Part shown: in pieces, positions 17,731 to 54,764 of the stretch
How positions within the stretch are numbered: position 1 is the stretch's first letter
How the letters are laid out: the number at the start of each line of letters is the position of its first letter
Source of the DNA: Eledone cirrhosa
Taxonomy: Eukaryota
Assembly: GCA_964016885.1 (NCBI GenBank)
Contig: OZ024765.1
Span: 21,018,001 to 21,082,000 of the forward strand
Direction: 5' to 3'
Length of the DNA stretch: 64,000 bases
The notes under the pieces: model-generated
What the model was told of the DNA's origin: nothing
Databases searched by the model: none
The model's input: the letters and a program-made list of their open reading frames with translations, nothing else
Program-made: the position numbers and the translations under genes

Positions 17731-17795
17731 TATTTTATCTGATGAAAGCACACCATAATTTGACTTGGTGTCCTTGAAATATGTATAATGAAATA
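17731..17795 (+). ncRNA. Minimal type I hammerhead ribozyme motif
   Basis: tattttat CTGATGA aag-c-acacca(loop)tggtgt-c-ctt GAAA TATGTA TA atgaaata; lies in a ~170-bp TA-flanked element (17657-17832). Confidence 0.8.
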
Positions 17796-18412
17796 AATAT
17801 GGTTTTATAAATATAGTTTCCATTTGTTAATATATCATATTATATATATATATATATATATATATATATATATATATATATATATGTGTATATATGTATA
17901 TATATGGAGAGATAGAGTGAGAGAGAGGAGAGAGGAAATGAGAAAGAGATATAGAGGAAGAATCAACCCCAGTACAAAACTGGTACTTTTTATTATCGAC
18001 CTTGAAAGGATGAAAGGCAAAGTTGACCTCGGCGGGAATTTTACTCAGAAACCAGAGAGTTACGAATACCATAAAGTATTCTGTTTGACATTCACCGCCT
18101 TTATATGTAATACATATATCTTTATATATATATATATATATATATATATATATATAATACATATATATATACACATATATATATACACACATATATATAT
18201 ATATGTATTTCTATATAGCTATCAATATCTCTCTAATAACATCATCAGCCCCATATATATATATATATACATATATATATATAGTAAGGTGCATTATTGG
18301 TTGTGTAAAATGGTCCAATAACTTTATGTTAGCAATATTAAGTTCTCCACGCTTTTGTATATCTCCAACCCTATTCAGGGGAACAGCTAGATGATGTAAA
18401 ACGGAGTATAAG

Positions 18413-18775
18413 TATCAAAATGAAAATCCGAAGGCAAGGTAAAATTCCAATCATTTAATCACGACACATGTTTCAATAAGAGATAGATCGATTGTGAAGT
18501 CATGATCGATCATCACTGATCTCATCAGGTGAAAATGAATTGTCTTCGAATTCTAGATATGAGGTAGAAAAACTATAATATGAGAGAATGAATTCTGTGA
18601 GAGAAGATAGTTATTTTCTCTCCCTCATGTCAAGGATTTGAAGACAATTTATTTTCACCTGATGAGGTCAGTGATAATCAATCATGACTTCACAATCGAT
18701 CTATCTCTTATTGAAACATGTGTTGTGATTAAATGATTGGAATTCTACTTTGCCTTCGGATTTTCATTTTGATAT
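18413..18775. ncRNA. Fold-back cassette with two hammerhead motifs (18459-18532 minus; 18655-18728 plus)
   Basis: tcac CTGATGA [~47 nt] GAAA CATGTG TC/TT gtga in both arms; arms ~135 bp. Confidence 0.75.
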
Positions 18776-20166
18776 ATATATATATATATATATATATATA
18801 TATATATATATACATACATATATATGTAAGTATGTATATATATATATATATATATATATAAGTATGTATATATATATATAAGTATGTATACATATATATG
18901 TAAGTATGTATATATATATATATATATATATATATATATATATATATATATATATATATATATATATATGTATATATATATATATATAAGTATGTATATA
19001 TATATATATATATATATATATATATATGATTAAGGATGATTTTCCGAATGGGATCGGAAAATAAAACCAGTGTTAAATGATATATTTAATAAATTAGGAG
19101 AGAAGAAGCATATTTATTTTATATAGGAATGACTCCTACAGGACTAAATCTGTTTCATTCATATGAAATCATCTACTTCTAGTTCTGTATAAGTCACTTC
19201 TCTATAATATATATATACATATATATATGTAAGTATATACATATATTTATATGTATGTATATATATATATATATTTATATGTATGTATATATATATAAAT
19301 ATATATATATATATACATATGTAGGTATATACATATATTTATATGTATGTATATATATATATATACGTATGTAGGTATATACATATATTTATATGTAAGT
19401 ATGTATATATATATGTATATATATGTGTAAATAAATGTGTGTATATATATATATATATATGTAAGTATATATATTATGTATGTATATACATATATATATA
19501 AATGTATGTGTGTATATATATATATATATATATGTAAGTATGTATGTATATATTTATATATATATATATATATTATGTATGTATATATATATATAATATA
19601 TGTATATATATATACATATATGTATATATATATATACATATATATATACATATATATATAAATGTATGTGTATATATATATGTATATATATGTGTAAATA
19701 AATGTGTGTATATATATATATATATATATGTAAGTATATATATTATGTATGTATATACATATATATATAAATGTATGTGTATATATATATATATGTAAGT
19801 ATGTATGTATATATTTATATATATATATATATTATGTATGTATATATATAATATATGTATATATATATACATATATGTATATATATATATACATATATAT
19901 ATATATATATACATATATATATAAATGTATGTGTATATATATATGTAAGTATGTATGTATATATTTATATATACATTATATATATATATATATAGAGAGA
20001 GAGAGAGAGAGAGAGAGAGAGAGAGAGAGAGAGAGAGAGAGAGAGAGAGAGAGGGGGTAAATAGATAGATAGGGGGGAAGGGAGAGAGGGGGGAGTGGTA
20101 GTGGTGAGTACATGAGGGAGAGGGTATGAGTGCCACTCAGCCCTCAACCCACAAACAAAAGATTTT

Positions 20167-20447
20167 TTAAAGCATCTTCTTAATCTGTTTAGTCTGGTCC
20201 TTTACTTTAGTTGTGGCAGACTTGACGGTGTCGGTCAGTTCGTCCAGTTTCTCGTTCTGTTTAGTCTCCTCCTGGTTTATATTAATGGCCATTGACTTGA
20301 TCTTCGTTAAGATGTTGCTGACCTCCTCCGCTTCGGCGTCGCTCACCAGTTGTTGCTTGTTGCAACTTTTCTGTTCCTGCATCGGATCTTTGTATTCAGT
20401 CGGGGACCTCTCCTGGATCGTGCTCGTGTTGTGGGTTGATGTCGAAC
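20167..20447 (-). CDS. SNAP47: SNAP47-like protein, last coding exon (C-terminal SNARE motif)
   Basis: Acceptor ttctattgtttag|GT is phase 1, matching the upstream donor (A+GT=Ser). Encodes EVSNILTKIKSMAININQEETKQNEKLDELTDTVKSATTKVKDQTKQIKKML*. Joined CDS is 1281 nt = 426 aa. Confidence 0.82.
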
Positions 20448-20514
20448 CTAAACAATAGAAGAAACAATATATATACACACACACACATATATATATATAT
20501 ATATATATACATGA

Positions 20515-20861
20515 TCATCATCATCGTCATTTCATTTTACGTCCGCTTTTTCTTCCCTGCTTGCAAGGGTGGGACGGGAACTGATTCTGGCTTGATTTCT
20601 ACAGCTGGATGCCCTTCCTAACACCAACCTCATTTACAGTGAGTGCTGGGTGCTTTTTTGCCGTGGCACCTCAACGACCACTTTGCAGTGGAATGATAGG
20701 GACCCCAGTCCCTATCATCTCATTTCTACAGCTGAGTAAACTGGAGCAATGTGAAATAAAGTGTCTTGCTCAAGGACACAACACATCACCCGGTCTGAGA
20801 ATTGAACTCACAACCTTTCGATTGTAAGGCCAATGCTCTAACCACTAAGCCACGTGCCTCC
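20515..20861 (-). mobile_element. tRNA-derived SINE family A (Meta-domain-like core, RTE-type tail)
   Basis: Head ggaggcacgtggcttagtggttagagc (A box)...gagttcaattc (B box); core ccttgagcaagacactt; tail cccacccttgcaagcagggaagaaaaagcggacgtaaaatga + (GAT)n. Confidence 0.9.
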
Positions 20862-21321
20862 TATGAATGCATATATATATATATATATATATATATATGA
20901 ATGCATATATATATATATCATCATCATTTCATTTTACGTCCGCTTTTATATATATATGAATGCATATATATATAAATATATATATATATATATAAAATAT
21001 AAAAAAAATAATGAATAAAACAATGAAACAGTTCCTTATATTAAACAAAAAAAGTTCATTATTTAACGATCGTTTCTAGGACATATATGTGACACTACCG
21101 TAAACTCTTGGTAGATTTATCTACATATATATATATATATATATATATATATATGCACATACATATATATATATATATATATATATATATATATATATAT
21201 ATATATATATATATATATATATGTATGTAAAAGTTCTATTTAAATTGTTGGGATACAACAAGCAAATATTTTTATAACTGATATAAAGCACTCAACAAAT
21301 TATTGGAGTAAACATACGATA

Positions 21322-52609: not shown

Positions 52610-52746
52610 ATTATCAGAAACGTCTGAAAGGAGCCGTCGAGGCGAGAACGAAGGAGGAAAAAGAGAGAAAAGAAAGGAAAGAAATATTAACACAAGAAAT
52701 ATGGCACGCTAAGAAGAAAACTGTGGACCTCCTTCAGCAGATCAAG
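52610..52746 (+). CDS. Coiled-coil gene, internal exon
   Basis: ttattgcag|AT phase 1 in (G+AT=Asp); encodes [45 protein letters not shown]; |GTCAGA phase 0 out; 137 nt. Confidence 0.8.
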
Positions 52747-53157
52747 GTCAGATCAGGGGCCTCGTCTTATTTCCTTGATATTTTAACACTTTCATTAGCT
52801 GGGCCGAGGTGATAAAAACTGACCTTGCCCACCTACACCTCTCTAACACTGGATCCAGACCTTTGGCGCCCTGCAGTTGTACAGAAGACCCGACTACCAT
52901 TGTATACAAACCTACAGTCAGTAGGCACCTCTTAACCCAATGTACACCCCACCCTCACACCCTACCCCATCCTCCCTCTCCCGTTCCGTCCCCTGTGTCG
53001 ATGACACAACAGTCCACACTGTAAGGCGGGGTTGTCTGTTTAATCGCTGACGACCCGATCATGTGACAGGTTGTACTGGGTTACATGTTACCAGTAGCAC
53101 TTGAGAGCGACCTGACATAAATGTATTACATATATAGACAGATATATATATATATAT

Positions 53158-53496
53158 GGAGGCACATGGCTTAGTGGTTAGAGCATTGGCCTTGCAATCG
53201 AAAGGTTGTGAGTTCAATTCTCAGACCGGGTGATGTGTTGTTTCCTTGAGCAAGACACTTTATTTCACATTGCTCCAGTTTACTCAGCTGTAGAAATGAG
53301 ATGATAGGGACTGGGGTCCCTATCATTCCACTGTAAAGTGGTCGTGGAGGTGCCACGGCAAAAAAGCACCCAGCACTCACTGTAAATGAGGTTGGTGTTA
53401 GGAAGGGCATCCAGCTGTAGAAATCAAGCCAGAATCAGTTCCCGTCCCACCCTTGCAAGCAGGGAAAAGCGGACGAAAAATGAAATGAAATGATGA
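53158..53496 (+). mobile_element. SINE family A, full length
   Basis: Same head, core and tail as the other copies. Confidence 0.92.
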
Positions 53497-54132
53497 TATA
53501 TATAGTAATAATAATAAATGTGAAGACTAAAATCTGAAGAGGGCTCGATAAGTATAATAAATATATATAAAAATATATAAAAACCATAGAGCAAATATTT
53601 ATTAAAATAACAGATTAAAGTTTAGGCAAAGAATCGCTGCTTTCACCCTTTGCTTAAACTTTAATCTGTTATTTTAATAAATATATATATGTAATTAATC
53701 AATGAAAAAAGAGTTAGTTGATTTGTAATCAACTCGTTCTTATATATAACATACCAAGCACTCAACGGTATAAATTTATCCAGAGTATTATTATATAGTA
53801 ATAATTGTTTCTACTTTTGGCACAAGGCCAGCAATTATCCCAGTGTATTACTGGTACTTTATTTTATTGACGCCGTAAGGATGAAAGGCAAATTTAACCT
53901 CGGCGGGATTTGAACTCAGATCATAAAGGGTCATAACTCTTTGCGTCAAAGCATGGCGTCCGACCCTCTACCGATACTATAAAAATAATAAATGTAAGAT
54001 ATATACTTTATATCATCTCTATTTATTTCATTATATATATTTCAAAGATGTAAAGTTTTATGTATAACATATGCCTGGTGGCCACCGATCTGTCCAGCTC
54101 ATTGGCTACCAGTATATCGTGAAAGATTATAC

Positions 54133-54472
54133 ATCATCATCATCATTTTACGTCCGCTTTTTCCCTGCTTGCAAGGGTGGGACGGGAACTGATTCTGGCT
54201 TGATTTCTACAGCTGGATGCCCTTCCTAACACCAACCTCATTTACAGTGAGTGCTGGGTGCTTTTTTTTTTCCGTGGCACCTACACGACCACTTTGCAGT
54301 GGAATGATAGGGACCCCAGTCCCTATCATCTCATTTCTACAGCTGAGTAAACTGGAGCAATGTGAAATAAAGTGTCTTGCTCAAGGAAACAACACATCAC
54401 CCGGTCTGAGAATTGAACTCACAACCTTTCGATTGCAAGGCCAATGCTCTAACCACTAAGCCATGTGCCTCC
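54133..54472 (-). mobile_element. SINE family A, full length
   Basis: Same head, core and tail as the other copies. Partial copies also at 34990-35198 (+) and 41998-42166 (+). Confidence 0.92.
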
Positions 54473-54688
54473 ATATATATATATGTAAAAGGTAAATAGA
54501 AATAACAACACAATCGGTACAGTATATGAAAGGTATATATATATATTAAGTTAACGCTTGATATAGCAGGAAGAGGATCTTAACTTTCAGACGCTAGTCT
54601 TTCATCATATATATATATGCCTCGTGGTCACCGATCTGTCCAGCTCGTTGGCTACCAGTATATCATGAAAAATTATACATCTTATATG

Positions 54689-54764
54689 TATTTTGTCTGA
54701 AGAGGACATGTTTTGCTTTGTTATACATAAAACTTTACATCTTTGAAATATATATAATGAAATA
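54689..54764 (+). ncRNA. Type I hammerhead motif
   Basis: tattttgt CTGAAGA gga-c-atgt...acat-c-ttt GAAA TATATA TA atgaaata; partial inverted partner at ~53995-54070. Confidence 0.7.

Follow-up and report, generated by a model that had tools for sequence, protein, structure and literature searches.

A 64,000-nucleotide (64-kb) stretch of the genome of the octopod Eledone cirrhosa (assembly GCA_964016885.1, contig OZ024765.1, positions 21,018,001 to 21,082,000 of the forward strand), hereafter the window, in whose numbering all coordinates are given, contains several hairpins in which three base pairs are followed by a C opposite a C and then by a further helix. This raises the question of what these hairpins belong to, and of whether the opposed cytosines are kept by selection. 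The original prediction had named four families, and all five of the strings it quoted were located letter for letter: aag-C-acacca/tggtgt-C-ctt at +17739 (C17749.C17772) and -21415 (family A), agg-C-atgcca/tggtat-C-cct at +23271 (C23281.C23305) and -23103 (B), gga-C-gtactg/cagtac-C-tct at +50922 (C50932.C50957) (E), and gga-C-atgt/acat-C-ttt at +54697 (C54707.C54741) (F). Each quoted stem is flanked by CUGANGA and GAAA; beyond GAAA come a stem III of 2 bp with a loop of 4 nt, a UH cut site and a 3′ strand that pairs with the bases preceding the core. Judged from sequence, the motifs are type I hammerhead ribozymes of the dimer type, with predicted cutting, and the hairpins are their stems II. 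They appear to form a long-stem variant limited to this lineage, in which the helix is broken, likely under selection, at the place where a normal stem II ends.

Both strands of the window were scanned for the core together with stem III and a stem I of at least 4 bp, requiring 7 or more of the first 10 stem II positions to be paired and leaving position 4, the site of the mismatch, unconstrained. The scan returned 16 hammerheads with an exact core and all three stems, whereas 100 shuffled windows gave 0.01 on average and at most 1. When one core change was permitted, 19 motifs in 10 families were obtained, the type I core (CUGANGA, GAAA, U16.1-H17) being exact at 16 sites and changed once at 3. 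A looser scan added 1 site, at shuffle level. The candidate at -43635 (two core changes, shuffle-level score) was left out of the family count, as were family K and motif M (both found by eye), copy L (a model match) and a family C copy with a one-base deletion. Three helices surround the core and stem I is open: stem I has 4–8 bp, stem III 2 bp, and stem II spans 30–114 nt in the families carrying the signature. The dimer-type feature is an 8-nt palindromic stem III (the 2-bp stem plus a self-complementary loop), which is perfect in families C, F and H, one arm of I and one copy of B, contains two G.U pairs in A, B, D and E, and has two mismatches in G, J and the second arm of I. A scan of the window with Rfam gave no hammerhead family at the gathering score and two tRNA matches only; ranked by E-value, the best 150 of 398 rows likewise held no hammerhead and were TA-repeat noise. 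This points to a blind spot, as stems II of 30–114 nt escape Rfam and also fall outside the 7–17 nt spacer of the core searches described in PMC8557442.

The families of the original prediction were compared with each other. Family A comprises a copy at 17731..17795 (+; 30-nt stem II, predicted cut after 17787), an inverted arm at 21359..21423 (-) and a direct arm at 21527..21591 (+), whose stem at 21535 reads aag-C-atacca and whose GAAA is mutated at G12 to CAAA; C.C is retained in all. Family B has an inverted arm at 23046..23111 (-), a direct arm at 23263..23328 (+) and a decayed copy at 56778..56843 (-; A.A at position 1), each with C.C, while family E lies at 50914..50980 (+) and family F at 54689..54764 (+; a weak 41-nt stem II), with the 3′ half of a second F copy at 54024..54071 (-). 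In the six copies of A, B and E, both sides have changed at 6 of 10 stem II positions, whereas position 4 is paired in none (0/6); the two-sided count was reached by 0 of 500 shuffles, a control that related sequences can beat. Outside stem II, families A, B, E and F are 82–97% identical over 35 nt, compared with 25–58% at the helix positions of stem II, so that stem II turns over faster than its flanks; helix positions 1–3 and 5–8 are all variable and C.C is constant. The families are therefore divergent in stem II, as had been claimed, but by their flanks they constitute a single subgroup. In a dimer-mimic fold with the core held open, which was used to predict the pairing of positions 1–3, these three pairs are formed (0.89–0.99) in A, B and E despite the mismatch. 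The family F stem has two G.U pairs in positions 1–3 and is not the predicted minimum-energy fold. Sequencing contigs of four runs, aligned to a B copy, show no variant of at least 2% at either C, and their common variants fall at the core site N7 and at stem sites, the latter mostly keeping pairing; 3758 contigs of one run align to this copy, which indicates that family B is highly repeated.

Across all families of the scan, which was blind to it, position 4 fails to pair in 16 of the 19 copies, which represent 9 of the 10 families. The bases are C.C in families A, B, E, F and I (10 copies), C.U in C and D (4 copies), U.C in G (1 copy, with position 3 open too) and A.C in J (1 copy), i.e. a pyrimidine pair in 8 of the 9 families. 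A strict C-C rule was consequently dropped, since C.C is found in only 5 of the 9 unpaired families; what is retained is an unpaired, C-containing position, and its variable but mostly pyrimidine bases fit a reading by geometry better than one by base. The five families C, D, G, I and J, all unpaired at position 4, are more distant, and the distant families have just 45–65% flank identity, fixed core included. Family C is found at 48774..48844 (+; perfect GCGC palindrome in stem III) with an inverted arm at 48704..48774 (-), both with C.U, and the copy with a one-base stem II deletion, outside the scan count, is at 26833..26902 (-). Family D (18655..18728, +; stem II of 47 nt) likewise has an inverted arm (18459..18532, -), and both have C.U. 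Family I at 38085..38225 (-) carries a rod-like stem II of 114 nt (z -4.6) with C.A at position 1 and C.C at position 4, and its direct arm at 38230..38360 (+) one of 104 nt, also with C.C; the mismatch thus sits at the foot of a 104–114 nt rod in a family that has only about half of its flanks in common with A. Family G (42443..42536, -) has a 61-nt stem II unpaired at positions 3 (C.A) and 4 (U.C), and family J (55633..55744, -) an 85-nt stem II with A.G at position 1 and A.C at position 4.

Taking one copy per family and counting K, which gives 11 families, positions 2, 3 and 5–8 are unpaired in 3 of 66 cells and use 2–4 Watson-Crick types each, whereas position 4 is unpaired in 10 of 11 families in register, 9 of them clearly; G10.1-C11.1 occurs in none of the 11. 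Fisher values for this comparison are too optimistic, since they include K and take the families to be independent. Family K (inverted pair at 14306..14520, cores at -14390 and +14436; a third, decayed copy at -36759) was rejected as support: it has U.C or U.U in register, yet for -14390 the better fold is one in which an extra A is present and the stem is paired. On a tree built from the flanks, which is mostly unresolved, position 4 has the fewest changes of the eight positions (3+3, versus 4–8 per side). A covariance model built from the six close copies missed families I, G, J and K in the window; the decayed copy L (36201..36278, -; GCAA for GAAA, stem I lost, C.C at position 4) was found as a weak match (E 0.11) of a model with the mismatch built in.

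The motifs are the 3′ ends of truncated Penelope-like elements (PLEs) of the Hydra clade in an octopod genome, and the identification of the hammerheads as belonging to that clade is very likely correct. Seven inverted pairs are present (at 14.4k, 18.6k, 21.5k, 23.2k, 34k, 38.2k and 48.8k), in which one arm bears a tail of 90–130 nt, and where the end is intact the element stops 38–70 nt beyond the predicted cut site, at TA runs. Truncated copies that lie inverted and carry a tail are the layout described for PLEs (PMC8557442; PMC11167929), and the three traits expected of the Hydra clade, i.e. (TA)n insertion, inverted truncated copies and a one-sided tail, were all found. The family J hammerhead lies in the 3′ untranslated region (UTR) of a Hydra-clade fragment, about 500 nt past the stop codon of the endonuclease and 64 nt before a TA run. 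The fragment encodes the C-terminal 103 aa of a GIY-YIG endonuclease (56237..56548, -; CxxC..E..N..CxH), 5′-truncated at a TA run, and this endonuclease tail is linked in cis to family J only. It is 29–44% identical to relatives including P0035 (RWK-like, DKT and CxCX5C motifs); 1139 relatives were obtained at E up to 0.001, some of them long and with the same three motifs, and CxxC and CxH around E and N are features of Hydra-clade endonucleases (PMC8557442). These relatives were missed by a word-index protein search, and Pfam gave no name. A tblastn search of the window with 15 of the longer relatives matched the endonuclease tail only, the copies being 5′-truncated.

A junction hairpin (CTC-stem-loop-stem-NN-GAG-YRCT, with a covarying inner stem) at the start of the tail provides a further link. 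It stands behind the hammerhead in 27 of 80 Hydra loci (sense; 0.45 when shuffled) and occurs 11 times in the window (0.32 when shuffled), at -21308, -22996, +56928, -48660, +27175, -53785, -14251, -5115, -25339, +25509 and +35328, among them sites behind arms of A, B, C, F and K; the tail beyond the family A inverted arm (21230..21311, -) begins with it. The hairpin is a candidate protein or reverse transcriptase (RT) start signal and a useful marker for assigning short fragments to the Hydra clade, and the accessible literature passages on these elements contain no description of it. Family E may be placed with the clade through its likeness to A and B, and D, G and I, which have no match to the hairpin, from their anatomy only. 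A non-LTR (long terminal repeat) retrozyme was rejected as the host, as copies are single or inverted and none lies within a tandem array among the 150 of 158 listed. Five short motifs compared with the accessible part of the published cephalopod Naiad supplement gave one match, inside a coding region, which makes this a weak test. The copies in the window are presumably dead truncations, so that selection would act on the source elements. Just 3′ of the predicted cut site, most families (A, B, C, D, E, F, G, H, J and K) carry an AAUAAA or AUUAAA that overlaps with the 3′ strand of stem I or comes after it; this might link polyadenylation to folding or cleavage, or it might stem from kinship and an AT-rich sequence. 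Motif M (5160-5195, -) is a hammerhead with the short stem usual in the Hydra clade and is followed by the junction hairpin; it has U.U at position 1, a 12-nt stem II, C.A at position 4 and a long stem III.

As an outgroup, we used the best 80 of 322 Hydra-clade loci from metagenome contigs, near one protein subgroup. A hammerhead was identified in 51 of them, while the other 29 end too early, are decayed or do not satisfy the motif definition. Position 4 is paired in 51 of 51, as C-G in 42, and usually closes a short loop; stem II has 11–14 nt in 44 of the 51 and position 1 is U.U in 37. C10.4 is thus old in the Hydra clade, where it normally belongs to the loop-closing pair, and the open form is so far found only here. 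Inspected by eye, the accessible Hydra table of PMC8557442 (File S2) has a 1x1 mismatch followed by a helix in 0 of 26 rows, though the canonical descriptor behind the table may exclude such forms. The covariance model from the six close copies gave 2 weak matches only in the 80 loci, the exact family pattern 0 matches in metagenome contigs, a looser pattern 59 viral matches, 0 of them with stems I and II, and a protein scan of viral contigs 0 of 54 confirmed. One outgroup locus (L074) holds two different same-strand hammerheads 110 nt apart, about 285 and 395 nt past the endonuclease match, a possible natural heterodimer.

Five distant families leave position 4 unpaired while it is paired in all 51 outgroup hammerheads; this supports selection on RNA structure, more firmly than the original prediction was able to, and the mismatch is probably under selection. 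The original prediction had called the covariation direct evidence of such selection, which goes too far: the evidence is comparative, and the four close families alone would be insufficient. That the mismatch is instead an inherited accident of one ancestor, never selected, seems decidedly improbable. Families A, B, E, F and C do form one subgroup (68–97% outside stem II), one family lacks the mismatch and the tree does not resolve, all of which would suit such an accident; however, the flanking pairs have without exception been exchanged, in many cases on both strands, with no loss of pairing, whereas position 4 stays open throughout and shows the fewest changes, and the low flank identity of the distant families also argues against it.

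Several observations weigh against a selected helix break and are gathered here. Family H (44885..44933, -, with a 20-nt stem II, and further copies with cores at +34058 and -33858) is paired at position 4 in all 3 copies. (The insertion at +34058/-33858 has the core CCGAAGA, U4 to C, in both arms.) Long stems II that are fully paired exist in the outgroup (L080, with 10 bp, L070 and L062) and in Hydra-1_aMil and Penelope-1/2_SK (PMC8557442, File S2); together with family H, they indicate that a long stem does not generally need a break. The outgroup was sampled from one subgroup, with a picking score that favoured pairing at positions 2–4. All families may descend from a single ancestor, and G, I and J, which are one insertion each, may be decayed; the lack of a junction hairpin in D, G and I counts here too. 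Under a drift model, the probability that five further lineages are all unpaired is about 0.09, and that all five have a C-containing mismatch about 0.001, both values counting K, so that one lineage fewer raises both. Within family B, many other stem II bases are as invariant as both Cs, and the common variant 23301 G>A disrupts a distal pair. Lastly, no docking partner is conserved in stem I, which has 4–8 bp and a different sequence in distant families; a conserved stem I partner was dropped for this reason, and so was a conserved register shift into the core, seen by eye in family E alone.

As to what the position would do, the original prediction had proposed a tertiary contact or a protein-binding feature, which we treat as hypotheses. 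Given a selected mismatch, the chances of a hinge or packing function and of some other role are about even. A narrow, flexible break is judged the most likely form, since the bases vary but are nearly all pyrimidines and the first three pairs form in A, B and E. Taken as a whole, the explanation that selection keeps a narrow and flexible helix break at position 4 of a long stem II is one we favour, at a little under even chances. The mismatch lies at about the level where helix II presumably meets helix I in the Schistosoma structure, and a flexible break would allow the long outer arm to get past stem I when the ribozyme is in its active fold. The usual Hydra stem II would have four positions, of which the last, C10.4-G11.4, closes a loop of 4–5 nt; in the present lineage that loop would have given way to an arm of 6 to about 45 bp, the closing pair becoming C.C or C.U, and the core-proximal module would have kept its usual size, uncoupled from the variable arm. 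In a tandem transcript, the 8-nt palindromes of two motifs would pair into a shared stem III and each motif would cut after position 17, probably aided by the protein of the element; dimer cleavage through a shared stem III is described for type I motifs with a short stem III (PMC4209133). The motifs of inverted pairs lie on opposite strands and could not form a dimer from one transcript, so such copies are relics.

Two other roles bear on the same evidence. The mismatch could be a recognition site for the RT-endonuclease of the element, serving to switch on the ribozyme or to choose the template RNA. A hammerhead of the Poseidon clade cut only once its protein was added (PMC11167929), the position and a cytosine are kept across families, and the arm beyond is a long duplex. 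We nevertheless regard this as unlikely, as the C is not confined to one side (it is at 10.4 in 7 of 9 families and at 11.4 in 7 of 9), Hydra elements elsewhere manage without a mismatch, and the accessible passages of PMC11167929 place the action of the protein at the RT start site and not at stem II. Quite unlikely, in our view, is a damping of cleavage in which the mismatch weakens the three core-proximal pairs and so spares uncut tandem transcripts for use as templates. In 6 of 9 families (C, D, F, G, I and J) these pairs are marginal: the predicted pairing of positions 1–3 is at most 0.5 there and rises once position 4 is closed, a closure that adds 4.6–6.7 kcal/mol; G10.1-C11.1 is missing from every family, and uncut RNA was the principal in vitro substrate (PMC11167929). 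Against this, families A, B and E form the three proximal pairs anyway, damping would also follow from a mismatch at position 2 or 3, yet the site is fixed at 4, and stems II of two pairs function in natural hammerheads (PMC3088659).

One PLE hammerhead needs the protein of its element (PMC11167929); a fixed unpaired site amid swapping pairs would offer a one-base handle on the folding or switching of the ribozyme. A bolder proposal is an undescribed octopod subclass in which the pyrimidine mismatch 10.4.11.4 takes over from the loop 2 contact, serving as a new site of tertiary docking or as the handle through which the protein of the element activates the ribozyme, and which Rfam and standard descriptors miss. 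We consider it doubtful; if it were true, very many copies would be uncounted and some elements said to be without hammerheads may hold such forms.

Other features of the window include an inverted pair at 25340-25460 in which half of a hammerhead-like motif is preserved, namely its 3′ part, with a GUC site and a long stem III but no CUGANGA half. An uninterrupted SNAP-47-like frame of about 350 aa (23646-24710, -) is 81% identical to an Octopus vulgaris protein and 76% to one from Argonauta. A young family of tRNA-headed short interspersed nuclear elements (SINEs; 93–97% identical) is represented at 20504-20896, 49380-50176, 53117-53497, 54132-54487, 55152-55465 and other places; it includes an inverted pair at 49404-50176 and is the source of the two Rfam tRNA matches. 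A 45-bp tandem array of 36 copies (1185-2834) encodes on its minus strand a repeated peptide (HGSETW) resembling long interspersed nuclear elements, which is also found in the RT frame at 45562-46458. Non-LTR reverse-transcriptase-like frames were recognised by eye at 42752-44686 (-), 45562-47534 (-) and 59348-60862 (+).

The association of hammerheads with PLEs is already known, while the stem II variant is apparently undescribed. The original prediction had called the feature unknown among described hammerheads, and we too found no description of a fixed stem II mismatch of this kind in the literature searched, a coverage that is incomplete, as wording varies, subscription journals lie outside it, and alignments of PLE variants could hold one. 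Variants of PLE hammerheads are reportedly the subject of Lunse et al. 2017. Closest are the Hydra-clade hammerheads (Craig et al. 2021, PMC8557442), which are likewise of type I, sit in the 3′ UTR near the end of the element and have a short palindromic stem III; a frequent non-G-C 10.1/11.1 and a C at 10.4 are also common to both, as are insertion at TA runs, inverted, truncated and tailed copies and the same junction hairpin. In most published and metagenome members, stem II consists of four positions capped by a short loop, and position 4 is paired, whereas the stem II of the window families, at its 30–114 nt, has a 1x1 mismatch there. The published Hydra-1_oBim hammerhead is a different family, with an extra G, a paired stem and a 9-nt palindrome (PMC8557442). 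The canonical type I hammerheads (Schistosoma, newt, the retrozymes of PMC7229834 and Rfam Hammerhead_1) have the same core, topology and short palindromic helix III. Unlike them, the window families lack a 4-bp helix II with its loop at docking distance from stem I: none of the 11 has G-C at position 1, and the terminal loop lies mostly at least 10 positions from the core. Canonical retrozymes are also head-to-tail tandem repeats (PMC7229834), an arrangement that the window copies do not show. With the metazoan PLE hammerheads of Cervera and De la Pena (2014, PMC4209133), the families share the dimer architecture, a longer helix II, the many covarying families per genome and the opposite-strand copies 100–700 bp apart, and the D. 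virilis hammerhead has a bulge in the middle of helix II. The consensus given there includes an additional base after A9 and conserves G10.1-C11.1; neither is seen in the signature families of the window, which retain a stem III of 2 bp and whose mismatch is two-sided and always at the same place.

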